The notes under the pieces are model-generated. The model was given only the letters and a program-made list of their open reading frames with translations. It ran no database searches and had not been told where the DNA came from. A stretch of DNA of 64,000 nucleotides from Actinomycetota bacterium (GTDB lineage Bacteria > Actinomycetota > Aquicultoria > SURF-47), in assembly GCA_003599235.1 (NCBI GenBank), contig QZJE01000007.1, positions 16,585-80,584 on the forward strand. Direction: 5' to 3'. Positions 2,159-48,893 of the stretch are shown here, piece after piece. Each line of letters opens with the position of its first letter. The stretch's first letter is position 1. A program made the position numbers and the translations under genes.

Positions 2159-3328
2159 ATGACTTTGCAGAATTTTGATTTAAAAGCAAAAGGTAAACAA
2201 ATAAGTATTGACGATACGACTCTTAGAGACGGCGAACAGACTGCCGGTGTAGTTTTCGCTAACCGCGAAAAGATTAGAATAGCCAAACTGCTAGACGAAG
2301 TTGGCGTCGACCAAATCGAAGTCGGAATCCCTGCCATGCGCGGGGACGAAAAAGAAACTATCAAAAAGATAGCCAAGCTGGATTTAAATGCCAGCATACT
2401 CGCTTGGAATAGAACAGTGTTATCTGACATCCGCCATTCGCTTGACTGCGGAGTTAATGCCGTTGCCCTGTCAATTTCAGCGTCAGATATTCATATCGAC
2501 CATAAACTAAAAAAAAGCCGGTCATGGGTATTAGAGAGCATCAAGGAAAGCGTTAGTTTTGCAAAAAGTAAGAACCTTTATGTCTCTGTTAATGCAGAAG
2601 ACGCCTCCAGAGCCGACCTGGAGTTTTTGGTAAGATTTGCCAAAACTGCTAAAAAAGCCGGTGCCGACCGCTTACGCTTTTGCGATACCTTGGGAATATT
2701 AGACCCCTTTGAGACATTTAAAGTAATTAAAGCCTTGATTGAGGCTACCGGTATCGAAGTTGAAATGCATACTCATAACGATTTCGGGATGGCAACTGCA
2801 AACGCGCTAGCCGGAGCAAAAGCTGGTGCTACCTGGATAAATACTACGGTTAACGGACTTGGTGAGCGTGCCGGTAACGCTGCTTTAGAAGAAGTTGTTA
2901 TGGCTCTTAAGTTGCTAAGCAAAATTGATTTAGGTTTTAAAACCAAGATGTTTAGAGACTTATCCGAATACGTTGCTAACGCAAGCGCTAGAACAATTCC
3001 CGTTTGGAAAGCTATCGTCGGAACAAACGTCTTTGCTCACGAATCTGGTATTCATGCTGATGGGGTACTGAAAAATCCTTTAACCTATGAGTCTTTTTCC
3101 CCTGATGAAGTGGGACTGGAGAGACAATTGGTAATCGGAAAACACTCAGGCACTGCTTCCATCGTCTCAAAATTTAAGGAATTCGGCATAGAATTAGAAC
3201 AAGAAGATGCTCAAGCAGTTCTGGAAGAGGTCCGCTCACACGCCGTAGGTATGAAAAGAGCCTTATTTGATAAAGAGCTGATGTATATTTTTAAAGACTA
3301 TAATAAGTCAAAGAAGAAAAAGAAATAA
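2159..3328 (+). CDS. 2-isopropylmalate synthase / citramalate synthase / homocitrate synthase family protein (short form without the LeuA regulatory dimerisation domain)
   Basis: TTLRDGEQ motif, HTHNDFGMATANALAGAKAGA, and a TIM-barrel HMGL-like domain. At 389 aa it lacks the C-terminal regulatory domain. AGGAG RBS 8 nt upstream. It heads the leuC-leuD-leuB cluster. Confidence 0.8.
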   Translation: MTLQNFDLKAKGKQISIDDTTLRDGEQTAGVVFANREKIRIAKLLDEVGVDQIEVGIPAMRGDEKETIKKIAKLDLNASILAWNRTVLSDIRHSLDCGVNAVALSISASDIHIDHKLKKSRSWVLESIKESVSFAKSKNLYVSVNAEDASRADLEFLVRFAKTAKKAGADRLRFCDTLGILDPFETFKVIKALIEATGIEVEMHTHNDFGMATANALAGAKAGATWINTTVNGLGERAGNAALEEVVMALKLLSKIDLGFKTKMFRDLSEYVANASARTIPVWKAIVGTNVFAHESGIHADGVLKNPLTYESFSPDEVGLERQLVIGKHSGTASIVSKFKEFGIELEQEDAQAVLEEVRSHAVGMKRALFDKELMYIFKDYNKSKKKKK

Positions 3329-4581
3329 TGGGCAAAACGATAGCGGAAAAAATATTAAGCAAACATTCTAACAATGATGCTCATGCCGGCGATTTAGTAG
3401 TAGCAGACCTAGATTTCGTAATGGGCCAAGACGGCACATCCCCTTTGGCTATCAGGGCATTTGAAGAGATGGGTGCTACTGAGGTATTTAATAAAGAAAA
3501 GGTGGTCATGGTAATAGACCATAGCGCCCCTTCCCCGTTAGAGGGTGTTAGTGCCTTACACCATTTAATGCGCGAGTTCGCTAAAGATAAAGGCATTAAG
3601 CTATATGATATTGGCTGTGGAGTGTGCCACCAATTGGTTCCTGAGCAAGGACACGTAGCTCCCGGTAATTTAGTTGTAGGAGCCGATTCACATACATGCA
3701 GCTACGGCGCCATTAATGTTTTCTCTACCGGGGCCGGCTCAACTGATATAGCTGCCGCTATGGCTTCTGGCAAACTATGGTTTAAAGTCCCCGAGACTAT
3801 TAAGTATATTCTTAACAACAAACTAGCAAAAGGAGTTTACTCAAAAGACCTCATTTTATACCTAATCGGCAAAATAACCGCAGATGGCGCTACCTATAAA
3901 GCAGTTGAGTTTACCGGAGAGACTATCGGGAACTTAAGTATCGACGCCCGTTTTACTATTTCGAATATGGCAATTGAGATGGGAGCTAAAGCTGGGTTAA
4001 TGGAAGCTGACGACAAGACAATTGAGTGGGTAAAGAAAAGAAATAAAACAGCTTTTGAGCCGGTAAGTCCTGACAGTGATGCTAATTACTTAGAAGTAAT
4101 AGAGTGCGACTGCTCCAAAATAGAGCCTCAAATAGCCAAACCGCATACCGTTGATAACGTAAGTCCTATTAGTGAACTAGAAGGAACGCCTATTCACCAG
4201 GCTTTCATTGGAACATGCACCAATGGACGCCTAGAAGATTTTAAGATTGCCTCACAGATATTAGCAGGCAAGAAAATTAATTCGGACGTAAGATTTATTA
4301 TTGCTCCCGCTTCCAAAGATATTTTATTGGAAGCCACTAATATGGGATACATGCAGAAATTAATTGAGGCCGGAGCTGCTTTAGTTACCGCTGGTTGTGG
4401 CCCCTGTGTAGGAACTCATAACGGTGTTCCCTCAGATGGGGAGAATGTAATATCTACTGCTAACCGTAATTTTAAAGGAAGGATGGGGAACTCTAACGCC
4501 TCGATTTACTTAGGCTCTCCGGCTACGGTAGCAGCCTCTGCCCTGACTGGCAAAATCACTGATCCCCGTAATTATCTATAA
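3328..4581 (+). CDS. leuC: 3-isopropylmalate/(homo)aconitate dehydratase large subunit (aconitase family)
   Basis: 417 aa, aconitase-family large subunit of the archaeal/short type (Fe-S cysteine ligands in GTCTNGR and GCGPCVG). Its start overlaps the stop of the upstream synthase (TAATG). Confidence 0.85.
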   Translation: MGKTIAEKILSKHSNNDAHAGDLVVADLDFVMGQDGTSPLAIRAFEEMGATEVFNKEKVVMVIDHSAPSPLEGVSALHHLMREFAKDKGIKLYDIGCGVCHQLVPEQGHVAPGNLVVGADSHTCSYGAINVFSTGAGSTDIAAAMASGKLWFKVPETIKYILNNKLAKGVYSKDLILYLIGKITADGATYKAVEFTGETIGNLSIDARFTISNMAIEMGAKAGLMEADDKTIEWVKKRNKTAFEPVSPDSDANYLEVIECDCSKIEPQIAKPHTVDNVSPISELEGTPIHQAFIGTCTNGRLEDFKIASQILAGKKINSDVRFIIAPASKDILLEATNMGYMQKLIEAGAALVTAGCGPCVGTHNGVPSDGENVISTANRNFKGRMGNSNASIYLGSPATVAASALTGKITDPRNYL

Positions 4582-4728
4582 GTTGCCTCTGGGTCAAAAA
4601 TTCAACAAGTTGCCGTATATCTTTTCCAAGCCGCGGATTTTTCCCAGCGTGAAAAATACCGCTTAACTATTGTTTAATGCCTTCTACCCCCTACCACCTA
4701 CTCCCTACTCCCTGCTATACTATTCCAA

Positions 4729-5247
4729 ATGACAATTTCAAAAGAAGTTAGCAATTTAACAGGTTTTCCGAAACTTCCAAAACCACTAATAAAGCTATTT
4801 TTAAAAGCCCCTTGGCTGGTACCGGTAAGAATCCGCTGGAAAGTGGCCTCTAAGGGAATAGGTCTTTTGATGACAGCCGTAACCGGTAAAGATGATTCAT
4901 TATCTATGTCGTGTAAAGAACTTGGCCTCAGACAAGCTAAGGCACTTAAAGATAGCTTACAAGTTGGCAGTAGCCTTAAAGAAGTAATGCAAGTTATACG
5001 TTTAGCTAACCGCCTCTTTGGAACAAAACATACTTTTAAGATGATTAACCCTACTACTTCTAGAACCTTAGTAAAAAAATGCGCTTGGGCTGGTAGCGAT
5101 ACTTGGGGACAAAAAGCGTGCGCAACCCTGTCTGCTTATGAAATCGGCTTGGCTGAAGGATTAAATGACAAAGTTAAAATCAGATTTATCACTAAAATGG
5201 CTAAAGGGGACTCGGTTTGTCAAGCAGAGTACACCCTAAATCAATAG
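4729..5247 (+). CDS. Hypothetical protein inserted between leuC and leuD
   Basis: 172-aa ORF with coding-like composition and no recognisable motifs. It fills a 750-nt gap in an otherwise compact operon. Real status uncertain. Confidence 0.35.
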   Translation: MTISKEVSNLTGFPKLPKPLIKLFLKAPWLVPVRIRWKVASKGIGLLMTAVTGKDDSLSMSCKELGLRQAKALKDSLQVGSSLKEVMQVIRLANRLFGTKHTFKMINPTTSRTLVKKCAWAGSDTWGQKACATLSAYEIGLAEGLNDKVKIRFITKMAKGDSVCQAEYTLNQ

Positions 5248-12426: not shown

Positions 12427-12439
12427 AAAACCCTAACCA

Positions 12440-13288
12440 CTAACCCCTAACCACCATGGTGCCAACTCCTTCATCAGTAAAAATCTCCAATAATAGTGCA
12501 TGTTGAATGGTTCCGTTTAATATGTGGCAACGATGAACGCCTGAATCTATGGCTTCTATGCAGCTAAGAAGCTTTGGCAGCATACCACCTTTGAGACGAC
12601 CGTCATCAATTAATTTCTGGCTTTGTTCTATGTTTAGAACAGATAACAAGCTATCTTTTTCGCCTATTTTGCCGTAGATCCCATCTACATCTGTTAGATA
12701 AATCAATTTTTCTGCCTTTATAGCTTCTGCAACCGAAGCTGCTACAGTATCAGCGTTAATGTTGTAAGAATTTCCATCTTGGCCTTGCCCCACCGAGGAG
12801 ATTACCGGTATTTTTCCTTCCTTAATAGTCTTATTAAGCTTTTCTACATCTACACTTTGAACATCGCCTACAAATCCCAAATCCTTGTCATATTGTTTTT
12901 TGTAAGCAACAATAACTTCTCCTGAATAAGCTTGGGCAACATCGCCATGTTTATTAATATTATCTGCTATTCTCTGGCATGCCTGGCCTAAAACTTTGGC
13001 TACTATATCCATTGTGGGCTTATCTGTTAGCCGCAAGCCGTCAACAAACTTAGGCTCAATACCTGCGTTTCGCATTGCCAAACTAATCTCAGGCCCGCCA
13101 CCGTGAACTACTACCGGGTTTAGCCCCACATAGTGCATCAAGGCCAGGTCGTTAACTATCGATTGTTTTAGTTTTTCTAAAACCATCGCTTTACCGCCAT
13201 ATTTGATAACAACCGTCTTGCCTTTATATTCCTTAATATAAGGCAAGGCTTGCATCAATATTTTGGCTTTAGCTATTGCGTTCTCCAT
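12440..13288 (-). CDS. argB: Acetylglutamate kinase
   Basis: 282 aa, amino-acid-kinase family (VIKYGGKAM, HGGGP). Confidence 0.9.
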   Translation of the reverse strand: MENAIAKAKILMQALPYIKEYKGKTVVIKYGGKAMVLEKLKQSIVNDLALMHYVGLNPVVVHGGGPEISLAMRNAGIEPKFVDGLRLTDKPTMDIVAKVLGQACQRIADNINKHGDVAQAYSGEVIVAYKKQYDKDLGFVGDVQSVDVEKLNKTIKEGKIPVISSVGQGQDGNSYNINADTVAASVAEAIKAEKLIYLTDVDGIYGKIGEKDSLLSVLNIEQSQKLIDDGRLKGGMLPKLLSCIEAIDSGVHRCHILNGTIQHALLLEIFTDEGVGTMVVRG

Positions 13289-13335
13289 ACTTTATGACTC
13301 CCTACTCACCACTCACTACTTACGACTTACGGTTT
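13289..13335 (-). repeat. Purine-rich tandem-heptamer leader element (minus-strand CCGTAAGTCGTAAGTAGTGAGTGGTGAGTAGGGAGTC) between argJ and argB; copy 1 of a near-identical pair
   Basis: A 32-nt core differs at only two C/T positions from the element at 48855..48893. It is built of GTRAGTNG repeats and ends in the argB RBS GGGAG. Confidence 0.55.
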
Positions 13336-14577: not shown

Positions 14578-14624
14578 TTTTTTCCTCCCTTATCCCTTAA
14601 CACTTATCCCTCATCCCTGAAGCA

Positions 14625-15609: not shown

Positions 15610-15633
15610 TGTATAATTTTAAACAATTATACA
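15610..15633 (-). promoter_or_regulatory. ARG-box-like operator (9-bp inverted repeat TGTATAATT-N6-AATTATACA) overlapping a TATAAT -10-like hexamer upstream of argC
   Basis: Perfect 9/9 inverted repeat about 10 nt upstream of the argC RBS, in the AT-rich intergenic region after pheT. It resembles the AT-rich palindromic ArgR/AhrC boxes (TGAAT-N-ATTCA type). Confidence 0.45.
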
Positions 15634-15676
15634 CTATTATCAGATAAAGTAAAGAAAATATTAAATATTTTAAGAA

Positions 15677-18058: not shown

Positions 18059-18118
18059 AGTAAAAATCCAATCAACGCCAAGTACCAGGGACTAAGGACT
18101 AAGTACCAAGTACCGTTT

Positions 18119-19242: not shown

Positions 19243-22200
19243 TTACAGAATAACTAATCTTGCTTTTGCAACTCTTAACTGCTTATTTCCAGCTCTGTCC
19301 GTAGCATACATAAAATATTCATAACTTCCTTTTCTTAATTTAGCTTTAGTCTTGATAATCCTTCTAACACCAATTTTTTGGCATCCAGTTTTTAACGTCT
19401 TGATTTGCTTTTTACCTTTCTTGATAATTATTTTCGTATAAAGTAATCCTCCGGTGAAAGCATCTCTTATCGTAGCCTTAAACTTAACAACCTTGCCTCT
19501 TCTTGCTCTTACATTGTATGCCTTAACCCTGGGCTTACTATTATCAACTACTACAAATAACTTTGTCACTTCTTCATCACCCATTGCATCCATGGCTTTA
19601 GCTGTAATAATATGCGGACCATTTCTTACTTTCCTTGTGTTCCAAATTATAGGATTTCTAAATCCAAAAGCCTTTTCATGGTTATCAAGAAATAACAAAA
19701 TGGTTTTGGGGACAAAGCCATCTAAACTTTCAATATTTATTTTAAAGCGGCCCCCAATATAGGAATTTGAAAGCCCTTTGAACTTTATTCTTGGTAATTT
19801 TTTAACATCCGTTTGCACCTCATTGCTATATGTACTTGCGTTACCAGCATTATCAACTGCCTTTACCCTAAAACTATAACTTTTCTTTTCCATCAGATCA
19901 GCAAATGTATAATTGTTCATATATATGGGCGTATTTACCTGCTGCCAATTGGTGTCGCCAATATTATATTCAAGTAAGTAATAGCTCATCCCAGATAAAC
20001 CTATCTGATCTTGTGATAATAACCAATTTAGATTAATAAAATAATCCCTAGTATGTTTAGGTATTTCTTGCAATAAAGGTGCACTTGGAGATGTCTTATC
20101 AATCTTTAATTCAATTTGTTTGTCTTGCTCTAGATTTCCAGCTTTATCTTGCGAACGATAAGCTAGGTTAGCAATTCCCTCTCGGTTGATACTAAATGCC
20201 GTATCGTAGACCTGCCAAGTAGCCCCGTTATCAAGGCTATACTCTGTCTTTTGTATTCCTAACCCATCAGCATTATCTTGAGCGCTTAAAGATACATTAA
20301 CATCTGAGGTATACCATCCATTATCTCCTTTGGCGCCTGAAATAATTATAGAAGTAACAGGAGAAGTTGTATCGGTAATCATAATCTTTGCCTCTAAGCT
20401 GCTCTCTAAATTACCTGTTTTGGCAACAACTTTAATGTTATGTAACCCCAATTTTTGTGACCCTAAATCATAACTAAATGATTGATATCCATTTACCGAA
20501 ACACCATTTGATATCACTTGGTTATTATCAATAATAACTTGAATATTTGCGCTAGATTGCTGGCTGGAAAAAACATCGTAGCTAAGCTTTACAGCATCGG
20601 CTGGGCAATATAACGGCTTGTCTGTTTTAATCGACGTTAGTGAAATACCTGTAATATCAAAATACTGGGTTCCACTATCCAAAACTACTCCGTTTTTGAC
20701 TATCCAATAACATAGTTTATGAATACCTAGTGTATTTGTATCCAGCTCTAAATCATAACTAAAGTCATTTTTGCCAGCGTTTAATTGCCTATTGGTATCC
20801 ATAACTTTTGTTTCTTTGCCGGTAGGATCATATATTGAAGCAATAAACTTGCCATCGAAAGCTGATTCACAATCAGCTTTGAAGTTTAGCTTTAACGTAT
20901 CTTGCGGATTATAAACACTCTTATCCAACGAAGAATCATTTATTGTTAAGTCGAGACTGTCGACATCAATGAAGATTTGCCCACTTTCACCATCTAAACT
21001 GTAATCGACGGGATAGGTTCCGCCCTTAAGTTCCTGCGGCAATTGGAAGTTAAAGGAAGTATCGCCAGAAATCGTCAGGTCTTTAATATAATTAGGTGCA
21101 TTAACTTTTAAAGTGCCTGGTTTGCTTGATTTTACTTCTATATTTACAGTGTCTCCAGGATTATAAACGCTTTTATCAGCAATCAAGCTTAAAGTATTGT
21201 TCTCTTGCCTTGCGTAAAGACTGTTTAGATATAATGCCCTGCCGGTACTTGCATATACTCCATAGGAGATTTTCTCCTCACCCTTATTAAGTGGAATATC
21301 TAAAGTAACTTGCTTGCTTCCATTAAGAATAAAGTTATCTGTTTTAGCTTCATTGTCACCGGATGATGCTTTCGCATAAACTTCAATTTCAGGCAACGTG
21401 CTTTCGTTAATAATGTCTAGCGTAATAAATGCATGGTCGCCTACCATATATACATCTTTATTAAGAGTAGCTTCTGTATTTATTTTGATACCCTTGATTT
21501 GGTAATCAATAGTTCTTTGCTCTTGACCTGCTAAATTATAAATTGCAGGATAACTTTTTTCCTCTAGATCGATAGGTGTGTTAAAAATAACCTGAATTTC
21601 TTTTTCTTCTCCAGGTTGAATATATTCGTACTTTTTATCGGTAAAAATACCGGTTGAATCGAAATCTAATTCTGCTTGAGCTTCGATGTTGCCAGTATTT
21701 TTAACCTTAAAATTAAAGGTAGCTTGTTCGCCAGTAGTAAAGCTAAGGTTTTGAGGCTCCTGGGTTATAGTAAAATGTGCAGGCTTAATTTCGACTGGGA
21801 TACTAGTGTTAGCTAAAACCGTACCATCAACTCCAATGGCTTCAACTAAAATATCATGCCTGCCCGGTGTTGCCGCCGCTGTTCGTAAGGCTGAATCGGT
21901 ATTTTTGCTTTCGCCGGCAGCAACTTCTACCTCGATTTCTGTAGAATCGAAAGTAGCGCCAGTCTTTAACTTCCCACAAAATGAACCAAATCCGCCATTT
22001 GTTAGCTTAGTAGTGAATGTGATTTTGCCATCTGGTGTTGGAGTTAGATTAAAACTCGTATTTAAACTAATATCGTTTTCTTTAAGCACCTTTACTGAGC
22101 TACTACCGGAAAATAGCGATGATTGATAGGCTAAATAATAAGTACCTGCATTTTGGGGACTAAACGTAACTGTACTATCATATACATTTCCTTTCGGAAC

Positions 22201-25200
22201 ATAAACGCTTTTGATTACAGATTCATTATTGAGACTAAAAGCAACGTCAAAAGAGCTGTCTATTAAGCCTGAGTTGGTAATACTAAAAGGTATCTCAATA
22301 ATTTTTCCTTGGCCATAGTACTCTTTTTGATTAAGTGCAATGTCGTCTTTTTCTCCAAAAGACACAGTTTTTGTTTGAGTTAAAGTAACATCTCCTGTTA
22401 GTTCTGCTTTAAACTCCGTATTCTTATTAATAGCAACCGAATAATCGACAATTTTTTGCTCGCCTGGCTGCAGAGTAATATTTTCTTGCTTTAGAATTCC
22501 ATTGTTATCTGAAAAAGCGAGGTCGCCACTAAACTCAATATCAGCAGCATTTTTAATAGTAGCGGTTAAGACAAAGGGGCTTATCCCGACCATCGAAGGA
22601 GCTTCAAAAGTTAACTCTGCTTTAGGCTGGATTATTTTTACCGACTCGTCGACAGTAGCATCAACAAACGTAGCTTTAAGATTAAAACTATCAGCTGCAG
22701 TAGTTGTGCAAGAAAAAGGCTTACTTTCGCCAGATGATAGATAAGAAATATTTTCTGTATAAATTACTTCCTGATTTTTATATATATTTAGCACTTTGTT
22801 TTCCAGTGGCAACTCTGCACTATTCTTTAATTGACCAGTAATAGTTATTGTTTCATTTGGCTTAAAGGCTTTTTTGTCAGCATTTAGAGATAACTCTGTT
22901 TTGCCTGGAAAGATATAGAAAGGATAGATACTCTTGGCAATTGTTTGACCGTTGCTGGATTTCAAAGTCTCTTGTAGATACAACTTACCTGTTGCGTCTA
23001 TTGAGCCTATTGCTTCACTGATATTTGATGTTTCATTAGGCGCTAGACTGATAGGCATTTGTTTTTGCCAGAATGTTTCTTTTGGTGATCCAGGATTAAA
23101 CAAATATACGCTAGAAGTCCCATTTTCATCTTCTTGCCAGACAACATTATTGCCCGAAACACTAGGAGAATATTGGTCTGAAGAGTCAGAAGTAACTCTG
23201 AACTCCGTTCTTGTTTCTAGATCATAACCGTAAACATCTTTATTTCCGTTTCGATTATCAGTCCAAGCAATCATATTCCCGTCTATAGTTGGTTCGGTTT
23301 GGTCGGAAGCATTACTGGTAATTCGCTGTTCTTTTTGAGTTGTAATACCGTATACATAAATATCCCAATTGCCATTTCTATTATCTTGATAAACGATTGT
23401 ATCCCCTGATATTGAAGGTAAAAGCTGCTCAAAGCTATCACTAGTTAAATTGCGCCTTGTGTTGGTAATAGTATTGAGTAAATAAATATCATCATTAAAA
23501 CTCCAAACAATATTGTTATTATCTATAGATGGAGAAAGGCCTAATCCAATCCCCCTCAACTCTCCTGTTAACATGTTGAATGTAGTAATTTCACCAAAAA
23601 AATCTGCCCAAACAACCGTATCTTCATAAATATCTGGATCTATACAAGGAGATTGGTAGGAATTACTTAGTTCCCTCATTTTATTGGTTATTAGGTCATA
23701 TGATATAATTTCAAGCCCGCCACCATTAGTTCCCCCTGACCAGACCATCATATCGCCCGATATTGCCAGTTTATTGTCACCTAAGAGTGGTTCCATACAG
23801 ATACCGGTATCTATTCTTCGTTTCTCTTTCATTTGCAAATCATAAACACACAAGCTATTAGATAAATCTGAAGACTCAGCCCAAATTGCCCTATTGTTGT
23901 CTACGACAGGCATTACTTGCTCTGAAACACTGGTTCCCATAGATGCATTGCTATTAACTTGGCTTGCTGTATTATCGTCAATGTCATACATGAAAATATC
24001 AGCATTGCCGTTTCTGTAGTCTTCCCATACTAGTATTTCGCCTTGTACATCTGGTGATATCTGCATCGCCCCTGAGGAATCTATTCTTTGGGTTGTTTTA
24101 GTCTCAATATCATAAACACATACTTTCCATCCATATGGCATATCCTCAGTTGAACAATCTGTCCAAACAACCTTATCATCCGACAAACAAGGAGTTGAGG
24201 GTTCATAAAATGATAAATGCTGTACTTCTGCAATCCTTTCTTCCGTTCCTGAAAGAAAGTCATACAAATACAAATAGTGCTTGTTATCTTCCGTTCTAAA
24301 CCACATAGCTTTATTATTTGTAATCGCTAATTTCTCATAGTTAGCATAACCACATGAGTAATCACTGCTTATTTGTGATGCAGATTTTGACTCTAAATCG
24401 TACATAACTACGCTGGGTTTTGAGGTTCGATTATCGACAAAAAGTAATCTATTTCCAGAGATAGCTGGTTTATTTTGGTTATTATAATAATCAGGCCATA
24501 ACACTTCCTCTGTTTTAGTAACTAAATCAAAAATGCATACTTTGTTTACAAAGCCCATGGATCTGATACCTACTACTCGATTACCTGAAATTACCGCATC
24601 GTTATAGCTGTAAGGCAGCTTGTATTGACCTTTATTAGCCAAATCATAGACATATATAGAATTGTTTTCATTCCACAAAATGTTATTTTCAAAGATCTGG
24701 ATATCTGAAATAAAATCACTGGTAGATGCAGCTACTTTACTTTCCTCTCTACTTCCAAAATCATACAAATAAATCTCATCCCTGCTACTGCGATTATCTA
24801 CCCAAACCACTTTGTTCTGCCATACTGCAGGGTCTCTTTGTTTTGCTAGTTGTGGGCCACAATCCAGTTTTGTTTTTGGGCCTGCCATTATTCCTAATCC
24901 GTCTTTGAATACTTGTAAGCTTAAAGATCCATTGTCAACTTGGTTGGAACCATTAATTATGTTGGTTAGACTGTTAGCTATTTGGCCATGTAAATAGGCA
25001 GTTTTATCTGTCCTAACAATCATCTCAGCATTTGCACCATCTATAAATATCTTTTCGTAAATCTTAGCTTTCTCGCCAGTAGAAAGATTAGTAAAATTTG
25101 CCTTTAAATAATAATCCCCTCTAACAACCTCTTGTGGAATACTAAAATTGATACTTTGCTCTTCTCCAGCTTTGACACTACTAGCTCCTGACTGGATGTT

Positions 25201-28200
25201 TAGGATATCTTGCCCAAAAGAACCATGTAAGTTTATTTCATATATATAGTCCGTATCAACACCGCCAGTATTTTCTAAATTCACCGTAACATCATCACCA
25301 GGATGGTAATTGCCATCCGATAAATCGGTTTGCAATAATGCGGCTGGGGTATATATTTTGCAATCAGTGCTCGTAAAACTAGTTCCTATCTGTAAAGAAA
25401 CACGAACATTGTGTTGTCCGGGTAGCAAATCCTCGCTTAGTTCCACAGGGATACTTAATGGAGTAACCGAATTTGATTTTGAGAACAACTGATATTGTTG
25501 TAAATAATTGTCATCGATTGCAAAAGATACTACGACATTCTCATAATCGAAACTACCGTCGTTAACTATATCTATGGGCCAATTAACAAAATCTCTTATC
25601 TTAAAGATATTCTTTTGCTGTTTGGAAAACACTCTTGCAGATGAAGAAATGGTACTCGAATAGAGGGGGCTGTTATCAATTGAGTAATTGAATTTGTAAT
25701 TGCCCAGTTCTACCTCTGGGAAATTAGGATAAAAATCAATAATTTTCGTCTCTCTACCTATAACAATTGGTTTACTCTCACTAAATAACTCAATATTCAA
25801 AGGGTTAATGACTGAGAGGTTTATTTCACCATCATAATAAGCACCCTCATTACCAAAAGTAATCTGTGTTGAATTGCGCCCTACGTGTAAACTTGGAATG
25901 TTTTGATTATTTACTTTTATGTCTGGTTTACAGAATATTTTTATTTTATTAATTGACTTGTTTTTTAAAGATCTATTAATTAGTATTTCAGTGTTAATTT
26001 GGTAATTTCCTGTTTTAGTTGATATATCTTTAAGAATTAATTCGTCCGAAGCAACATACAAATCATTGGCATTTAAAATAATTGGCCGAGTTATTGATTT
26101 AATAACCTTATTATCAGGATCAGTTATTTTCGTTAATAAATTGCATACCAAGCTGTAGCCGTAAGGGTTAGAAATTTGATTTGTCAAAGTCATGTTTTCG
26201 GATATATCGAAAGCATCTTTATTAGTCGTTTGCTTCATTTCTAAATCAGGGAAAAAAGAGAGGATTTCCTTGACACAAGTAGACGAGCAACTATCATCAA
26301 TAGACTTAGCCGAAAGACAAAACAACTCGTTACTAGCTATGTTAGTTGCTATGAAACCCACAACTGCACTTTGTTCTGCCTTAATGAGTACAGTATCCTC
26401 TAAATGATCAATCTGGGTGCCTGCATATCTTTTTAGATATTTTACATTTATCCATGTATCATGTTCGCTATTGTTGTAAACCGTTGCAGTAACTGGTACT
26501 GAGCAACCCTGAGGATAGAATTTATTAGGGTCGTTGATGCTAATACTTATTTTAGATGGGATATTGACTCCCTCTTGTGGTTCAATAGAGGAAAATCTTT
26601 TCCCTTCAGATTGGGGCTGTATTATCTCATCATTAACCCCATGTAATTCATAATCGATATAGTTAATTCCTAAATTATTAGATATTGGATTGCTCTCATA
26701 TTCAATACTTGTTGTTTCTCCAGCATCAAGATTTATATCAACAACCCTATTTGCTACTGGCTTTCTATCCCTATTAGTTAATATAAGCTTCACTTTTTTG
26801 GCCGAATACTTTGTTAAGTTTTTTATGTATTGTGAAACAGCTAGCGCTTCATTGGCTTTTACAACTTGAATGTTTTCATTTGGGTTCTTTGCCCAGGATA
26901 TTATGTCTTCAAATAATGTTCTTTCAGAGGATGATATTGAACGCATCCCGTAAGACCAATCTAGCATTGATGAAGTAACAATAATCATTCCCTTATTGTA
27001 TGGATAAGCGACAATATCAGGCATATTATTTGCAACTCTCATCGACAGTATTTCAGAGTTGCTGGGGCAGTTATATAAATAACCGTCAACCGGTAAATTT
27101 AAGACCGTGCTAGTTTGCCCCGAAAAAATTGGATGAATTTTTGATATTCTTGTTGAATCACCGTAACAGCTAATGTCTTCACGCCAGCCTGCTCCGCTAA
27201 TATTGCCAGGTAAAGCATTAAAATAGCGGCCGTATTGTTGGTCGAAGCAAATAATTGTCCCGCCTTCTTCTGCACATTTTTTGAGCTTTTCTTTAAATAC
27301 TTCGGAGGTATCTAGGCCTGTTAAACCTCCTGTTGGAATTATTAGGATTTGATTGCTCTTTGAGGAAGTAGGATCAAACTCTTCCGGAGTTACATCTATA
27401 TAGGGCTCGTTTATGTTATCTAAGAACTTTCTATCGGCAAAATAAAACCCCGTTTTCAGTAATTGGATATCGGGTGTTGCCTTCCAGTCGGCACTTATTT
27501 GTAAAGCATTGTTATTGATATCCCTGCTTAAATTACTAATTACCTTTTCTTGATTATCTAATTCTTCTTTACTGGCACCGCTTCCTTGAAGTACTTGATA
27601 TTTTTCTAGTTCATCAAGCATCCGCTTGGATTTAAGAAAGCTGTTAAGTGTACCTTTTTTAACAGCTAACCGTAAAAATTTATTCATCTCTTGTTTTAAT
27701 GATGTGAAGTCCGTGTTTACAATACTGGAACTAGAGTAGTTATCATCAGGATGATCATTTCCCGGATGGTCCAGAAGATGGTTAGAATAAACAAAATCCT
27801 CTATTAAACTCTTTACCGAGCCAATAGCCGCAGGCGCTAACTCATCTAAATACCATTTATTTACAGCTTCACCATCTTCCCCGCTTAAATCGTACGGATA
27901 TAAACCAAGTGGAAAATATTCAACCCAAGTTTGTCGGAAAGGAGATAATGTTAGATTAGTGAAGCTGTTGTGTAATTGAAAATCATAGTCCGCGGTGCGC
28001 CATAAGCTTCTGTCAAAAGTATAGTAAGCCATAGATCTAAGACTTAATGAACCACTTGGACGTGTTGAATTTTCCCAATGTGCTTTGAAGTAATCTTCTG
28101 TACTATCCCCACCGATAATAGAACCATGCGGTTTTGAATGAACATGAGATGGCGAGGCCATGTCTTCAAGTAAATGAGCAGCCCTACCTAATGAATAAAA

Positions 28201-28542
28201 TGCATTACTGACCATACCTTTACTGGCTAAATTATCAGCCTCATCCTTGTTAGTGTTAAACCTGCGGAGTGCCGTTAAATAAGTGTCTCCTAACCACCCT
28301 TGGCCAGTATAAGGATTATATCCATGATACATCCACCAAGCTGCCTGATCTTCATCAGAAGAACCATCAGCTAATTTTTGCTTGTTTGATCTTACAATCT
28401 CCGAGCTTACATAATCAGCAGCAATTGAAGTCATATTCTTGTGAATGCCAGGATCATGAGCTTTGACTTTGTTGGTCAAGATAATAGGCATAATTAAGAT
28501 GATTATTAATATTGCAAAAGCCTTTAAAATTATACTTTTCAT
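19243..28542 (-). CDS. Giant secreted/cell-surface multidomain protein (3099 aa)
   Basis: Single uninterrupted 9.3-kb ORF. Residues 1-25 form a signal peptide/TM. Residues ~28-270 (nt ~27732..28461) resemble Bacillus cereus Zn-dependent PC-PLC (AFYSLGRAAHLLEDMASPSHVHS against AFFYLGLSLHYLGDVNQPMHAAN). Residues ~390-560 are an unknown alpha/beta domain. Residues ~570-1230 and ~1850-2730 carry many CARDB/Ig-like beta-sandwich repeats. Residues ~1235-1815 (nt ~23100..24840) hold about 14 PD40 beta-propeller repeats (xVWxDxRNGNxDIYxYDL). Residues ~2735-2815 are a Big/OmpL47-type Ig-like domain (GWYTSDVNVSL...TEYSLDNGATWQ). Residues ~2818-2912 are an FN3 domain. The C-terminal ~90 residues form a lysine/arginine-rich tail. 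Confidence 0.8.
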   Translation of the reverse strand: MKSIILKAFAILIIILIMPIILTNKVKAHDPGIHKNMTSIAADYVSSEIVRSNKQKLADGSSDEDQAAWWMYHGYNPYTGQGWLGDTYLTALRRFNTNKDEADNLASKGMVSNAFYSLGRAAHLLEDMASPSHVHSKPHGSIIGGDSTEDYFKAHWENSTRPSGSLSLRSMAYYTFDRSLWRTADYDFQLHNSFTNLTLSPFRQTWVEYFPLGLYPYDLSGEDGEAVNKWYLDELAPAAIGSVKSLIEDFVYSNHLLDHPGNDHPDDNYSSSSIVNTDFTSLKQEMNKFLRLAVKKGTLNSFLKSKRMLDELEKYQVLQGSGASKEELDNQEKVISNLSRDINNNALQISADWKATPDIQLLKTGFYFADRKFLDNINEPYIDVTPEEFDPTSSKSNQILIIPTGGLTGLDTSEVFKEKLKKCAEEGGTIICFDQQYGRYFNALPGNISGAGWREDISCYGDSTRISKIHPIFSGQTSTVLNLPVDGYLYNCPSNSEILSMRVANNMPDIVAYPYNKGMIIVTSSMLDWSYGMRSISSSERTLFEDIISWAKNPNENIQVVKANEALAVSQYIKNLTKYSAKKVKLILTNRDRKPVANRVVDINLDAGETTSIEYESNPISNNLGINYIDYELHGVNDEIIQPQSEGKRFSSIEPQEGVNIPSKISISINDPNKFYPQGCSVPVTATVYNNSEHDTWINVKYLKRYAGTQIDHLEDTVLIKAEQSAVVGFIATNIASNELFCLSAKSIDDSCSSTCVKEILSFFPDLEMKQTTNKDAFDISENMTLTNQISNPYGYSLVCNLLTKITDPDNKVIKSITRPIILNANDLYVASDELILKDISTKTGNYQINTEILINRSLKNKSINKIKIFCKPDIKVNNQNIPSLHVGRNSTQITFGNEGAYYDGEINLSVINPLNIELFSESKPIVIGRETKIIDFYPNFPEVELGNYKFNYSIDNSPLYSSTISSSARVFSKQQKNIFKIRDFVNWPIDIVNDGSFDYENVVVSFAIDDNYLQQYQLFSKSNSVTPLSIPVELSEDLLPGQHNVRVSLQIGTSFTSTDCKIYTPAALLQTDLSDGNYHPGDDVTVNLENTGGVDTDYIYEINLHGSFGQDILNIQSGASSVKAGEEQSINFSIPQEVVRGDYYLKANFTNLSTGEKAKIYEKIFIDGANAEMIVRTDKTAYLHGQIANSLTNIINGSNQVDNGSLSLQVFKDGLGIMAGPKTKLDCGPQLAKQRDPAVWQNKVVWVDNRSSRDEIYLYDFGSREESKVAASTSDFISDIQIFENNILWNENNSIYVYDLANKGQYKLPYSYNDAVISGNRVVGIRSMGFVNKVCIFDLVTKTEEVLWPDYYNNQNKPAISGNRLLFVDNRTSKPSVVMYDLESKSASQISSDYSCGYANYEKLAITNNKAMWFRTEDNKHYLYLYDFLSGTEERIAEVQHLSFYEPSTPCLSDDKVVWTDCSTEDMPYGWKVCVYDIETKTTQRIDSSGAMQISPDVQGEILVWEDYRNGNADIFMYDIDDNTASQVNSNASMGTSVSEQVMPVVDNNRAIWAESSDLSNSLCVYDLQMKEKRRIDTGICMEPLLGDNKLAISGDMMVWSGGTNGGGLEIISYDLITNKMRELSNSYQSPCIDPDIYEDTVVWADFFGEITTFNMLTGELRGIGLGLSPSIDNNNIVWSFNDDIYLLNTITNTRRNLTSDSFEQLLPSISGDTIVYQDNRNGNWDIYVYGITTQKEQRITSNASDQTEPTIDGNMIAWTDNRNGNKDVYGYDLETRTEFRVTSDSSDQYSPSVSGNNVVWQEDENGTSSVYLFNPGSPKETFWQKQMPISLAPNETSNISEAIGSIDATGKLYLQETLKSSNGQTIAKSIYPFYIFPGKTELSLNADKKAFKPNETITITGQLKNSAELPLENKVLNIYKNQEVIYTENISYLSSGESKPFSCTTTAADSFNLKATFVDATVDESVKIIQPKAELTFEAPSMVGISPFVLTATIKNAADIEFSGDLAFSDNNGILKQENITLQPGEQKIVDYSVAINKNTEFKAELTGDVTLTQTKTVSFGEKDDIALNQKEYYGQGKIIEIPFSITNSGLIDSSFDVAFSLNNESVIKSVYVPKGNVYDSTVTFSPQNAGTYYLAYQSSLFSGSSSVKVLKENDISLNTSFNLTPTPDGKITFTTKLTNGGFGSFCGKLKTGATFDSTEIEVEVAAGESKNTDSALRTAAATPGRHDILVEAIGVDGTVLANTSIPVEIKPAHFTITQEPQNLSFTTGEQATFNFKVKNTGNIEAQAELDFDSTGIFTDKKYEYIQPGEEKEIQVIFNTPIDLEEKSYPAIYNLAGQEQRTIDYQIKGIKINTEATLNKDVYMVGDHAFITLDIINESTLPEIEVYAKASSGDNEAKTDNFILNGSKQVTLDIPLNKGEEKISYGVYASTGRALYLNSLYARQENNTLSLIADKSVYNPGDTVNIEVKSSKPGTLKVNAPNYIKDLTISGDTSFNFQLPQELKGGTYPVDYSLDGESGQIFIDVDSLDLTINDSSLDKSVYNPQDTLKLNFKADCESAFDGKFIASIYDPTGKETKVMDTNRQLNAGKNDFSYDLELDTNTLGIHKLCYWIVKNGVVLDSGTQYFDITGISLTSIKTDKPLYCPADAVKLSYDVFSSQQSSANIQVIIDNNQVISNGVSVNGYQSFSYDLGSQKLGLHNIKVVAKTGNLESSLEAKIMITDTTSPVTSIIISGAKGDNGWYTSDVNVSLSAQDNADGLGIQKTEYSLDNGATWQVYDTAFSINREGIANLAYRSQDKAGNLEQDKQIELKIDKTSPSAPLLQEIPKHTRDYFINLNWLLSQDQIGLSGMSYYLLEYNIGDTNWQQVNTPIYMNNYTFADLMEKKSYSFRVKAVDNAGNASTYSNEVQTDVKKLPRIKFKGLSNSYIGGRFKINIESLDGFVPKTILLFLDNHEKAFGFRNPIIWNTRKVRNGPHIITAKAMDAMGDEEVTKLFVVVDNSKPRVKAYNVRARRGKVVKFKATIRDAFTGGLLYTKIIIKKGKKQIKTLKTGCQKIGVRRIIKTKAKLRKGSYEYFMYATDRAGNKQLRVAKARLVIL

Positions 28543-28999: not shown

Positions 29000-30460
29000 C
29001 TATGCCAGCTCGATAGCCTTTAGCAAGGCTTTGGCTTTGTTGATGGATTCTTTGTATTCGGCCTTGGGATCCGAATCATAAACTATCCCCGCGCCGGCTT
29101 GGATGTAGGCAGTGGAATCTTTAATCAATATAGTGCGAATAGCAATACAGGTATCTAAATCGCCTGAATAACTAAAATAGCCAATGGCTCCAGCATATGG
29201 TCCTCTTAGTGTTGGTTCCAGCTCATCTATTATTTCCATGGCCCTGATTTTAGGCGCTCCCGATACTGTGCCTGCCGGAAAAACGCTTCTTAGAGCATCA
29301 AAAGCATTCTTGTCCTTTTCAAGCTTGCCGACCACGTTACTAACCATATGCATAACATGGGAATACTTCTCGACAAACATAAAGTCGGTTACTTCAACAG
29401 TGCCTGGCTCTGATACTCTGCCTAAGTCATTTCTTCCTAAATCTACCAGCATCAGGTGCTCGGCTTTCTCTTTTTCATCATTTAGCAGCTCTATTTCAAA
29501 CTTCGCATCTTCTGCTGCGTCAATACCCCGCCTTCTGGTGCCGGCAATCGGACGTGTTACAACATCATAACCCTCAACCTTTACTAGAGGTTCAGGGGAT
29601 GAGCCTACTAATTTAAAACCATCGAACTTTAAGTAGTACATATATGGTGAGGGATTTAGGGTCCTAAGTACTCTGTACACATCAAAGGATGGAACCTCTA
29701 TCTTGGCTTCAAAGCGCTGCGAAAGAACCACTTGGATGATATCACCAGCTACAATATAGTCTTTGGCTTTTTCTACCATATCGATAAATTGCTGTTCAGA
29801 GAGGTTAGAGGAAATATTAACTTCTTTTTTATTGGAAAAATCTTTTATTTGAACAGAAGGGATGCTTCGGCTTAACTCACCGATTATTTTGTCTATTTTC
29901 TTAAGTGTCTGGTTGTATACTTCTTCTACGTCACCCTTAATGTGAGCATTAACCACCACTTTTATTTTGTGCTTTAGGTGATCGAAAACCAGAAGATTAT
30001 CGGTGAATACAAAGATAGTCTCCGGCACATCTAAGTCGGATTTGCCGCTTTTAGGAATATCCTCAAAATAACGGATATTATCATAGCCCAGATAACCAAC
30101 CGCTCCTCCTTGAAATGGCGGCAATCCCTCGATATGAGCCGGTTTGTAGGGAGATAAAAGCTCCTTTATGGTAACCAAAGGGTCAACTACATTATCAATA
30201 ACCTTATTAACCTGGCCTTTTACCTTAGCTTTTCTATTACCAATAGTTACCACCAGATAAGGATTATTGCCTAGAAAAGAATAACGGGCATACCTTTGAG
30301 CCCCCTCTACACTTTCTAATAAAAAGGAGTAATCGGATTCTCCTAATTTTAGAAAAGCAGATACCGGTGTTTCTAAATCTGCCACAATCTCCCGGTAGAC
30401 CGGTATTAGGTTATGTTCTTTGGCTAGCTTCTTAAAGTCCTTTAGTGTAGGTGAGTACAT
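29000..30460 (-). CDS. Chorismate-binding enzyme: anthranilate synthase component I (TrpE) or aminodeoxychorismate synthase (PabB) family
   Basis: 486 aa with PIAGTRRRG...LMLVDLGRNDLGRV...GAPKIRAMEIIDELE...GYFSYSGDLDTCIAIRT motifs typical of TrpE/PabB. No glutamine amidotransferase partner or other trp genes are adjacent. It lies at the 3' end of the his operon. Confidence 0.75.
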   Translation of the reverse strand: MYSPTLKDFKKLAKEHNLIPVYREIVADLETPVSAFLKLGESDYSFLLESVEGAQRYARYSFLGNNPYLVVTIGNRKAKVKGQVNKVIDNVVDPLVTIKELLSPYKPAHIEGLPPFQGGAVGYLGYDNIRYFEDIPKSGKSDLDVPETIFVFTDNLLVFDHLKHKIKVVVNAHIKGDVEEVYNQTLKKIDKIIGELSRSIPSVQIKDFSNKKEVNISSNLSEQQFIDMVEKAKDYIVAGDIIQVVLSQRFEAKIEVPSFDVYRVLRTLNPSPYMYYLKFDGFKLVGSSPEPLVKVEGYDVVTRPIAGTRRRGIDAAEDAKFEIELLNDEKEKAEHLMLVDLGRNDLGRVSEPGTVEVTDFMFVEKYSHVMHMVSNVVGKLEKDKNAFDALRSVFPAGTVSGAPKIRAMEIIDELEPTLRGPYAGAIGYFSYSGDLDTCIAIRTILIKDSTAYIQAGAGIVYDSDPKAEYKESINKAKALLKAIELA

Positions 30461-31104
30461 TATTTCCAGCGCCTTCGCAGTTCGTTTTCTACTTCATCGA
30501 AGCTGATATCTTTCTCTGCTAATAAAACCAGTAAGTGGTATAGCAGGTCAGCTACTTCCCAAATTACCTCTTTGTTTTCCTTAATCATAGCCGCTTCGAT
30601 GACCTCTTCTGATTCCTCATCAACTTTAGCCAATATCTTATCTAGGCCTTCTGCTAAAAGTTTGGCAGTATAAGATCCTTCCGGTTTATCCTTTTTGCGT
30701 TGCAGAATAACAGAATATAGCTGCTCAATTACACTGCCGTCGACAGCTGAAGTAAGCTCTGTAATTTCTTCAGAGCCAAGGACTCCTTTTTTTAGCTCCC
30801 GGTGAAAACAAGTTCTTTCTCCTGTATGGCAAGCTGGTCCTTTGGGCTTAGCCATAATTAACAATGTATCGTTATCGCAATCATACAAAATGTCTTTTAC
30901 CAACTGATAATTGCCAGAGGTCTCCCCTTTTAACCAGAGTTTCCCGCGACTTCTGCTAAAAAACCAAGCTTTGCCGCTCTCTAAGGTTTTTTCCAAGGCT
31001 TCTTTATTCATATAAGCCATCATCAGGACATCTTTAGTTTTATAATCCTGAACTATGGCCGGAATTAACCCATCTTTATCGAATTTTAGATTATTAATGC
31101 TCAT
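30460..31104 (-). CDS. hisI: Bifunctional phosphoribosyl-AMP cyclohydrolase / phosphoribosyl-ATP pyrophosphatase
   Basis: 214 aa. The N-terminal half is HisI (metal-binding CHTGERTCF region) and the C-terminal half is HisE (MazG-like). GGAG RBS upstream. Confidence 0.85.
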
Positions 31105-31114
31105 GTCAACTCCA

Positions 31115-31257
31115 AGTAATTGTTTGTGCTTTCAAAAACGTGTCGCAGGCCTAGCTAGCATGGTTTCCCGACTTGTCGGGAATAGCTGGCCGAGACTCGA
31201 GCAGCATTTTCTCGCCGGGAAAATGACTGCGTATTTTAGAAAGCACAAACAATTACT
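31115..31257 (-). ncRNA. GC-rich ~143-nt structured element between hisF and hisIE, closed by a perfect 19-bp inverted repeat (AGTAATTGTTTGTGCTTTC / GAAAGCACAAACAATTACT)
   Basis: The arms at 31115..31133 and 31239..31257 are exact reverse complements. The ~100-nt interior is ~60% GC (against ~38% around it) and has internal hairpins (TTCCCGAC-TTGT-GTCGGGAA, GCTGGCCGAG/CTCGAGCAGC). The right arm overlaps the hisF stop codon, and the left arm ends about 5 nt before the hisIE RBS. Confidence 0.4.
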
Positions 31258-32086
31258 ATAATCTAACTGCAATTCCCTTATCCCTCATTGCCTCTTTAAC
31301 CTGCCTAATCGATAGCTCTCCATAGTGAAACAAAGACGCTGCCAGTACCGCATCGGCATCTGATTCTTTTACTACTTCGCTAAAATGCTCTAGGGTTCCT
31401 GCTCCGCCGGATGCAATAACCGGCACATTAACCGCTCTAGTTACTTGCTTAGTTAATTCTAGCTCATAACCATCTTTAGTGCCGTCCCTATCCATGCTGG
31501 TTAGCAAAATCTCTCCGGCTCCAAAAGAAACTACCTTCTTTGCCCACTCAATGGCATCAAGACCCGTGGGTGTACGCCCACCGTTGATGTAGACCTGATA
31601 CCAGTCCTCGGGGTCCTGTCGCTGGGGAATCCCGCCGTGCTCAGCAAGCTTGCGACGCGGCGGGAGCCCTTCTTCGCGCCACCCCTCGGCCTTTGCATCT
31701 ATAGCCACCACAATGCACTGGCTACCAAACTTTCTGGCGCATTCTGTAATAATTGACGGGTCTTTAATGGCAGCTGTGTTGATGGCTACCTTATCACAGC
31801 CGGTTGCCAGCATCTTACGGACATCTTCAACTCCTCTTATTCCACCGCCTATTGTATATGGAATAAATACCTGTTCAGCTACCTTGCTAGCAACATCTAA
31901 CATGATATTGCGCTCCTCATGGGAGGCAGTAATGTCTAAAAAAACCAGCTCGTCAGCCCCTTCTTTGTCGTAGACAGAAGCAAGCTCTACCGGATCGCCG
32001 GCATCTCTGATATCAACAAAATTTATCCCTTTAACTACCCTGCCCTTATCAACATCAAGACAAGGAATAATACGCTTAGCTAGCAA
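31256..32086 (-). CDS. hisF: Imidazole glycerol phosphate synthase cyclase subunit
   Basis: 276 aa, (beta/alpha)8 HisF (IIPCLDV, ...SGGAG). It carries a ~20-aa GC-rich in-frame insertion ([30 protein letters not shown]) in the loop after AIDAK. Confidence 0.9.
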
Positions 32087-37993: not shown

Positions 37994-38009
37994 TTGGTCT
38001 CCATGTACG

Positions 38010-38027
38010 GGCGTATTGCAATACGCC
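38010..38027 (-). promoter_or_regulatory. Perfect 18-bp palindrome GGCGTATTGCAATACGCC immediately upstream of the hisZ RBS (candidate operator or translational-control hairpin of the his operon)
   Basis: Exact palindrome 16 nt upstream of the hisZ ATG and 7 nt upstream of the GGAGACC RBS. It sits in the only sizeable intergenic region (107 nt) before the his operon. Confidence 0.35.
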
Positions 38028-38100
38028 TCTTCTGTTACTTAACATATCGGCATAATTACTTTAATACTTTAATTCATTAAACTACTAAAGCATACGGATG

Positions 38101-46459: not shown

Positions 46460-46517
46460 TATCCACCATCAAAGTTTTGGATTAAATAAGATACATTACG
46501 GTAGTATTTTACCATAG

Positions 46518-46537
46518 ATAGTTAAAAGGGCAGGCAT
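46518..46537 (-). terminator. Rho-independent terminator hairpin after rfbD (GGGCAGG-loop-CCTGCCC followed by a T-tract on the minus strand), part of a set of mutually exclusive GC hairpins
   Basis: Minus-strand RNA reads GGGCAGGUUGAUGCCUGCCC then UUUUAAC. Upstream are the overlapping alternative hairpins CCCCTACAGTAGGGG (46535..46549) and GGGCGAGA..TCTCGCCC (46547..46566). A -10-like TAAAAT follows before wzm. Confidence 0.5.
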
Positions 46538-46582
46538 CAACCTGCCCCTACAGTAGGGGCGAGATACTTCTCGCCCTAAACT

Positions 46583-48854: not shown

Positions 48855-48893
48855 TTCTTCTCCTACTTACCACTTACTACTTACGACTTACGC
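48855..48893 (-). repeat. Purine-rich tandem-heptamer leader element (minus-strand GCGTAAGTCGTAAGTAGTAAGTGGTAAGTAGGAGAAG) between rfbA and rfbC; copy 2
   Basis: Shares CGTAAGTCGTAAGTAGTRAGTGGTRAGTAGG with the argJ/argB junction element. It lies directly between the rfbA stop and the rfbC start. Confidence 0.55.

Follow-up and report, generated by a model that had tools for sequence, protein, structure and literature searches.

A 64,000-nucleotide stretch of DNA from an Actinomycetota bacterium (contig QZJE01000007.1, positions 16,585 to 80,584; hereafter the window) contains two gene junctions, argJ/argB and rmlA/rmlC-like, which carry near-identical arrays of a 7-nt unit. Each array consists of five in-register heptamers in the common order CGTAAGT CGTAAGT AGTRAGT GGTRAGT AGGRG.. 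(R is dA or dG). Both sites fall into a class already described for bacteria, the intergenic period-7 repeats, which resemble the short tandemly repeated repetitive sequences (STRRs) in the broad sense. They have a 7-nt unit repeated head to tail, they are non-coding, they lie in a region with an excess of period 7 made up of several units, and the orthologous sites are not conserved. We consider it probable that a heptamer array was copied between the two junctions, and that it serves at most as an unstructured, stop-bearing spacer with its final unit as the ribosome-binding site. The evidence does not support a sequence-specific regulatory role or a dedicated regulatory leader.

Two copies of one heptamer array

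The intervals 13289-13335 and 48855-48893 are the exact stop-to-next-start spacers on the minus strand, and both copies are wholly non-coding. Copy 1 (argJ/argB) begins 4 nt past the argJ stop codon and ends 9 nt before the next ATG; copy 2 (rmlA/rmlC-like) begins 1 nt past the rmlA stop codon and ends 3 nt before the ATG. In an anchored, ungapped comparison 13301-13331 and 48862-48892 (both minus strand) were identical in 29 of 31 bases, the differences being two G/A transitions. A preliminary description of the window had reported two near-identical, purine-rich junction sequences with two transitions in non-coding spacers. The near-identity, the transitions and the location are present as described, and purine-rich is roughly correct, with 24-25 purines and two dC in the 35 nucleotides of each copy.

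The likeness ends at the array edges. Identity of the flanks was at background, with 16 of 60 positions upstream and 22 of 65 downstream, and since the flanks are unrelated the two copies are not a segmental duplication. The strict 31-nt pattern was found in the window only at 13301-13331 and 48862-48892, which are separated by 35.5 kb, and in none of 100 dinucleotide-preserving shuffles. The tandem structure of five 7-nt units, a point not stressed before, is evident from the identity at a lag of seven nucleotides, which was 0.86 for copy 1 and 0.90 for copy 2, compared to at most 0.53 at other lags. Tandem Repeats Finder (TRF) reported a period of 7/14 at 48863-48896, corresponding to copy 2, and missed the degenerate copy 1. 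The units of copy 1 change towards the start codon by stepwise single transitions, from GTAAGT to GTGAGT to GGGAGT.

Both copies have the variable seventh base in one and the same order, C,C,A,G,A. For comparison, other genomes were searched with a pattern of four units, (GTRAGTN)3GTRAGT (N is any nucleotide), for which the chance expectation by our own arithmetic is about 0.1 in 596 Gb. At least 120 loci were found in the genome collection, the window's own genome not being among the matches listed, and 62 viral contigs carried the array (complete scan). Most arrays in the unbiased genome and viral samples have a single seventh base. Runs with three different seventh bases were found in 3 of 132 genome arrays (among the matches listed) and 3 of 68 viral arrays, with the order C,A,G in none of them. 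An identical 27-mer was present in 6 of 16 pairs of loci from one genome, and in 8.4% of pairs between genomes. Because the rare order C,C,A,G,A occurs twice within 36 kb, we infer that the window copies derive from each other or from a common source and are not independent expansions. The degenerate seventh base can be used as a barcode that shows the copying of a whole array between unlinked loci.

The ordered 27-mer GTGAGTCGTGAGTAGTGAGTGGTGAGT (C,A,G; GTRAGT-C-GTRAGT-A-GTRAGT-G-GTRAGT) was found in 34 metagenome contigs (L126-L159) with unrelated flanks and a GC content of 38-70%; the scan did not cover the source contig and the total number of arrays there was not counted, so that 34 is no measure of excess. 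In these contigs the array often has exactly four units and sharp edges. The 160-kb contig ERZ777003 NODE-110 has the 27-mer at two loci (L131 and L135), and metagenome Ga0316188 has it at three. L131 matched copy 1 over 29 nt, while L147 and L148 each matched copy 2 over 29 nt, and in L154 and L150 there is an inverted copy with unchanged seventh-base order.

The common order at the two unlinked junctions together with the 27-mer in 34 contigs has a further possible reading, namely that arrays spread as multi-unit cassettes by a copy mechanism and are kept on the sense strand just past stop codons as all-frame translational stop 'insulators' that also bring a ribosome-binding site to operon junctions. 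We find this distinctly improbable. The same facts could also point to a small mobile or templated insertion in which the 31-35-nt array moves as a unit, either REP/RAYT-like (repetitive extragenic palindromic sequences and their associated transposases) or templated by a reverse transcriptase or an oligonucleotide. The same barcode order with unrelated flanks and sharp edges at loci 35.5 kb apart, the recurrence of the ordered 27-mer within one contig and one metagenome, and the presence of such arrays in viral contigs would all fit. However, terminal inverted repeats, a target-site duplication and a palindrome are all absent from the window copies, inverted pairs elsewhere are alike in the array only and enclose ordinary sequence, no transposase or reverse transcriptase was found tied to the arrays, and the 34 matches cannot be assessed as an excess. 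Such an insertion is accordingly given very little probability. The earlier suggestion of a small mobile or repeated element thus stands for the repetition, the array being one of several period-7 families in the spacers of the window, and not for the mobility, as no transposon-like features were found.

Orthologous junctions and translation signals

RJQ32999.1, a protein from an 81-kb contig of an Actinomycetota metagenome-assembled genome (MAG), matches the window ArgB with 100% identity, and the source genome is a low-GC, deep-branching Actinomycetota MAG. The nearest ArgB homologues are 55-68% identical; those named belong to Subteraquimicrobiales, Oleimmundimicrobium, Aquicultorales and Solincola. 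Junction by junction, the arg cluster of the window was compared to those of three relatives, all distant (57-68% ArgB identity). In L121 (68%) the argJ/argB junction carries an array of the GGTGTTT/TAGTATT type followed by an inverted copy, while argC/argJ has three units of CTAAAGC and argB/argD units of the GGCTGGG type. In L122 (58%) argJ/argB reads GGGTATA GGGTATG GGGTTTC GGGTTTC. In L124 and L125 (57%) there is no spacer, as the genes argC-argJ-argB have 1-nt overlaps. Heptamer arrays thus recur at the arg junctions of this lineage and their sequence does not. The ancestral state of the arg junctions was likely tight. The different arrays or overlapping genes in the relatives argue against a conserved, sequence-specific leader.

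Both copies were found to be unstructured as RNA (z = +0.65 for copy 1 and +0.90 for copy 2), and Rfam 15 gave no match at the gathering threshold anywhere in the window. The minimum energy of the duplex with the anti-Shine-Dalgarno (anti-SD) sequence was -7.8 kcal/mol for copy 1 and -7.3 kcal/mol for copy 2, in both cases at the final unit. The GTAAGT units reached only -1.6 kcal/mol, which is background (coding mean -1.9 kcal/mol). One further anti-SD site in copy 1, GGUGA, is a product of the two transitions. Two other arrays of the window, pheS/pheT and the one at 4684-4713, had no SD-like affinity. A 'standby site' made of multiple SD sequences was ruled out, since neither the GTAAGT units nor these two arrays have anti-SD affinity.

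On the sense strand each copy contains seven to eight stop triplets that cover all three frames, compared to none or one on the antisense strand (none in copy 2). The first TAA of the array shares the frame of the preceding stop codon and lies at +9 nt in copy 1 and +6 nt in copy 2. The preliminary description had, as one of two readings, taken the conservation of the two spacers to imply a selected leader function (an RNA-binding-protein site, processing site or translation enhancer). This does not hold up against the different arrays or missing spacers in relatives, the occurrence of GTRAGT arrays elsewhere in both orientations as well as at convergent and divergent gene pairs, the restriction of anti-SD affinity to the final unit, the lack of structure and the lack of an Rfam match.

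The probable course of events lies at the level of DNA. Arrays would arise and turn over by slippage-type expansion, and would have been inserted into junctions that were at first tight or overlapping. Ectopic gene conversion or template switching could account for the copying to the other site, or for the origin of both arrays from a common genomic family. Selection would mainly filter the location and orientation in which an array is tolerated. On the mRNA the array is an unstructured, C-poor spacer with TAA and TGA stops in all frames right past the upstream stop codon. The final unit may have drifted by single transitions (GTAAGT to GTGAGT to GGGAGT or AGGAG) into the SD sequence of the downstream gene, so that the array would part the two cistrons and give an open ribosome-binding site.

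Several points weigh against this account of a copied spacer. Slippage and gene conversion are steps that we infer. Slippage purely in situ does not predict the presence of the C-A-G 27-mer in 34 unrelated metagenome contigs, sometimes at two places in one contig. With 68% ArgB identity even the nearest relative is distant, which leaves room for conservation over shorter times. Most arrays of the lineage, about 9 of 12 when counted by eye, have their G-rich strand as the sense strand. Finally, GTRAGT arrays are polar relative to stop codons: on crude maps of open reading frames (ORFs; minimum 150 aa), the G-rich strand of the array was the sense strand and lay 0-25 nt past a stop codon in 39 of 105 cases versus 8 of 99 for the mirror arrangement, which could reflect function. 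Stop codons inside the array were excluded from this count as an artefact of the array's own TGA and TAA; there were 33 such further cases among the fetched arrays (L001-L221). A passive filter is enough to explain the polarity, in that a sense array at a gene end trims the tail of the protein and an antisense array would lengthen it. The argB/argD array of the window, where only the ArgB tail is affected, illustrates such a filter. For other heptamer arrays the polarity was much weaker, 35 of 105 versus 37 of 178, and these numbers do not support it as a rule for all heptamer arrays.

The orientation of GTRAGT arrays in other genomes was also counted, on crude ORF maps of the fetched loci. 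Among the matches listed, arrays between co-directional genes were sense in 36 cases and antisense in 19, while 22 lay between convergent and 13 between divergent genes. Within 25 nt of start codons 9 were sense and 10 antisense, again among the matches listed.

These counts bear on the possibility that the array is a selected intercistronic translation element, in which all-frame stops act as an 'insulator' against read-through or frameshifted ribosomes and the unstructured RNA as an open platform for re-initiation or standby. Both window copies lie in sense orientation between stop and start, they bring an in-frame TAA early and stops in three frames, they are unstructured and end in an SD sequence, and GTRAGT arrays across genomes are polar, with the sense strand at or just past stop codons. 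Moreover, the hupS/hupL STRRs have been proposed to act in translational coupling (PMC2670836), and a translational role has been proposed for TAACTGA repeats (PMC4679880). However, GTAAGT pairs with the anti-SD at background level only, the arrays at pheS/pheT and 4684 show no such affinity, relatives do with overlapping genes or unrelated arrays, and near start codons there is no sense bias. The polarity is much weaker in other heptamer arrays and is also explained by passive tail truncation. We therefore regard a selected translation element as unlikely.

An RNA processing or stability site, where an endonuclease would cleave between the cistrons, is extremely unlikely. Although the arrays are single-stranded intercistronic segments and transcript stability has been proposed as a role of STRRs (PMC2670836), there is no structure, no conservation, no Rfam family and no known cleavage motif in the sequence. 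Altogether, neither a new regulatory RNA nor a common regulon of arginine and rhamnose genes is revealed by the analysis, and the copied-spacer account remains the one that we prefer.

Period-7 arrays in the window and in other genomes

By NCBIfam the first site lies in the cluster pheS-pheT-argC-argJ-argB-argD-argF, while at the second an rmlC-like cupin gene comes after rmlA (long form). N-terminal alignment with homologues supports the ATG used here as the argB start. Of the genes at the two junctions, argJ, argB and rmlA are confirmed by NCBIfam, whereas rmlC is only rmlC-like, its match of 78 bits being under the NCBIfam cut-off of 155.75. Promoter and terminator scans at the junctions gave no match above shuffle level.

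The two copies are not the only heptamer arrays in the window (Table 1), and several of its short intercistronic spacers are made up almost wholly of such arrays. TRF arrays of period 7 with at least 2.5 copies numbered 6, compared to 0.48 expected from Markov shuffles (maximum 3), while repeat lengths other than 7 were near chance. Of 15 same-strand spacers, 5 reached a lag-7 identity of at least 0.75, compared to none of 2000 random coding windows. There are at least five distinct heptamer units in the window; each of the other array junctions has its own, and adjoining junctions of the one arg cluster carry different units.

Table 1. Heptamer arrays and associated SD sequences in the window; units are given on the strand indicated.
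Feature	Position	Strand	Units or distance	Basis
Array copy 1, argJ/argB junction	13297..13331	-	CGTAAGT CGTAAGT AGTGAGT GGTGAGT AGGGAGT	
SD-like GGGAG in final unit of copy 1	13298..13302	-	9 nt 5' of argB ATG (13288-13286)	
Array copy 2, rmlA/rmlC-like junction	48858..48892	-	CGTAAGT CGTAAGT AGTAAGT GGTAAGT AGGAGAA	
SD AGGAG in final unit of copy 2	48860-48864	-	5 nt 5' of rmlC-like ATG (48854-48852)	
argC/argJ array	14585..14619	-	CAGGGAT GAGGGAT AAGTGTT AAGGGAT AAGGGAG	TRF, spacer read, lag-7 identity 0.76
argB/argD array	12428..12455	-	GGTGGTT AGGGGTT AGTGGTT AGGGTTT	TRF, sequence
pheS/pheT array	18080..18114	-	GGTACTT GGTACTT AGTCCTT AGTCCCT GGTACTT, then degenerate GGCGTTG	TRF, lag-7 identity 0.86
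Spacer array	4684..4713	+	CTACCCC CTACCAC CTACTCC CTACTCC	TRF, lag-7 identity 0.86

The final unit of the argC/argJ array merges into GGGAGG, the SD sequence of argJ, where the anti-SD minimum is -11.7 kcal/mol. The last argB codons and their TAG stop fall within the argB/argD array, whose 3' end lies 1 nt before the argD ATG. The last four residues of ArgB, VVRG, are encoded by the array right after the last conserved residues, GTM; the tails of homologues are unrelated and 2-9 residues long.

The array at 4684-4713 lies 15 nt upstream of the ORF 4729-5247 (+), with its G-rich strand antisense to the flanking genes. It has neither structure nor sense-strand stop triplets inside, and its reverse complement, GGAGTAG..., has the 11-mer GAGTAGGGAGT in common with the 3' end of copy 1. 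The ORF 4729-5247 (+) has no Pfam match and is preceded by an aconitase-family large-subunit gene at 3328-4581. A TATACT hexamer in the spacer 4582-4728 ends 7 nt before the ATG of this ORF. The ORF could be transcribed without a leader, with the array located within the promoter region.

The AT-rich, 50-nt pheT/argC spacer at 15627-15676 has no heptamer array. At 15626-15653 (-) it holds TTTACT-16-TATAAT, which among the promoter-like matches on the gene strand is the best in the region. This match suggests that the arg cluster has its own transcript start there.

Some further spacers and ORFs of the window were recorded. The 151-nt spacer 31105-31255 (-) between hisF (31256-32086) and hisIE (30460-31104) folds with -64.7 kcal/mol (z = -7.2) into a 19-bp closing stem around three hairpins. 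A search of Rfam gave nothing for it even at E <= 1, and the stem sequence was found nowhere else in the window. The spacers 37994-38100 and 46460-46582 (-) are of a non-heptamer type, with an 8-nt direct repeat TTAAAGTA present twice (lag-8 identity 0.80), a hairpin GGCGTATTGCAATACGCC, and the GC-rich, terminator-like hairpins GGGCGAGAAGTATCTCGCCC and GGGGCAGGTTGATGCCTGCCC. A 3099-aa ORF occupies 19243-28542 (-). The 2.4 kb at 40924-43337 have no ORF in the greedy map and read like a family-2 glycosyltransferase, which may be due to a map artefact or a frameshift.

The genomes with GTRAGTN arrays are diverse. The phyla among the matches listed include Bacteroidota, Cyanobacteria, Gemmatimonadota, Planctomycetota, Patescibacteria and Proteobacteria, as well as others. 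In these genomes an array often has its own reverse complement 10-120 nt further on; when a match of two units was required, 29 of 174 arrays had such a partner. Such inverted pairs (e.g., L154, L150, L057, L161, L206 and L045) form long 'register-locked' hairpins after genes, and the partners sometimes keep the seventh-base order; the window copies have no such partner. The idea that the pairs are terminal inverted repeats of a mobile unit was rejected, since they are alike in the array only and ordinary sequence lies between them.

Shuffled heptamers of matched composition were used to evaluate the frequency of the unit. In the viral contigs GARTGTN arrays were found at no fewer than 120 loci, TTGRGAN at 98, TGGRTAN at 66 and GTGRTAN at 23, compared to 62 for GTRAGTN. 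GTRAGT as a privileged motif is thereby ruled out, since shuffled heptamers are similarly or more frequent. In 1.1 Mb of loci picked solely for a GTRAGT array, the remaining tandem arrays included 111 of period 7, in 77 unit classes, while periods 6, 8 and 9 gave 14, 31 and 7 arrays. GTRAGTN is one unit family in a general phenomenon of heptamer arrays.

The same comparison bears on the view that the array is a set of protein-binding sites, on RNA or DNA, in a 7-nt register that would place the two operons in one regulon. The hexamer is regular with one position free, arrays form genome-specific 'dialects', and proteins that bind heptamers were postulated in Nostoc and in Beggiatoaceae. Yet neighbouring junctions of the arg cluster have different units, the sequence is not kept in relatives, shuffled heptamers form arrays equally often, the spacing is unlike that of the (G/U)AG sites bound by the trp RNA-binding attenuation protein (TRAP), and no candidate binding protein was found. 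We consider a binding array very unlikely.

Comparison with known repeat systems

The arrays described here are a further case of the long-noticed and mechanistically unexplained excess of intergenic 7-nt repeats. Heptanucleotide repeats are the most abundant long simple sequence repeats in most prokaryotic genomes, where they are intergenic and slippage has been proposed as their origin (Mrazek, 2007, as summarized in PMC4679880 and PMC4692102). The dominance of period 7 in the window and in the fetched loci is alike to that excess as summarized there; a degenerate seventh base and a barcode order common to several loci were not found described in those summaries. Heptamers are not mentioned in a tree-of-life survey of short tandem repeats from 2025. 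No published description was found of the GTRAGTN unit family, or of such repeats in deep-branching, low-GC Actinomycetota. As the arrays lie within well-understood arg, phe and rml operons, with overlapping genes in relatives, an effect on translational coupling could be cleanly measured, which makes them useful as a test case.

The two copies do not belong to the systems with four or more G-tracts, or to those with palindromes or regularly spaced triplets. GGGAATC arrays in Xanthomonas and GGGGAYT arrays in Nostoc (Y is dC or dT) are intergenic, some occur as inverted pairs and one is located inside an operon, between pecE and pecF (Rehm et al., 2015; PMC4692102). They occupy the same junctions in related species, including among the xanthomonads, while their length and sequence vary (PMC4692102). 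Heptamers near start codons in Nostoc were suggested to be regulatory, without a mechanism. The argC/argJ array of the window, with its unit AAGGGAT and four GGG tracts, is of this G-tract type, whereas neither of the two copies has more than one GGG, and a G-quadruplex needs four G-tracts. Like REP sequences and bacterial interspersed mosaic elements, the arrays are short, multi-copy and intergenic, and GTRAGT arrays elsewhere often pair with an inverted copy. The window copies differ from these and from miniature inverted-repeat transposable elements in having no palindrome, inverted partner or duplicated target, and no RAYT-like gene is tied to them. A TRAP site consists of 9-11 GAG or UAG triplets 2-3 nt apart, while the copies have about five triplets with 1- and 4-nt spacers in a 7-nt register.

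Cyanobacterial STRRs consist of 7-bp units and occur, for instance, in the hupS/hupL spacer. [quoted passage not shown] As in the window, units are arranged head to tail, several families occur in one genome, and the arrays are located in non-coding spacers including those within operons (PMC2670836, PMC4692102). The window arrays differ in being short (4-5 units), degenerate and without a hairpin, and they fall outside the strict definition, since the units are GTRAGTN and the host is an Actinomycetota MAG rather than a heterocystous cyanobacterium. The classical STRR units, those of Mazel et al. from 1990, are reportedly CCCCAGT, TTGGTCA and CAACAGT.

In placement the window copies resemble the TAACTGA repeats of marine Beggiatoaceae, which occur in 2-6 copies, mostly forward, directly before start codons and over the ribosome-binding site (MacGregor, 2015; PMC4679880). 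The RNA of these repeats is unstructured with stops in all forward frames, and the repeats are genome-specific with no known mechanism of spreading (PMC4679880). The copies in the window are likewise forward, located before an ATG, overlapping the ribosome-binding site and within the range of 2-6 units. They are not of the TAACTGA type: the unit is another one, they carry GGGAG or AGGAG, whereas TAACTGA regions are mostly without an SD sequence, and several unlike units occur together in one gene cluster of the window. MacGregor interpreted the all-frame stops of TAACTGA as a filter on where repeats are tolerated (PMC4679880).

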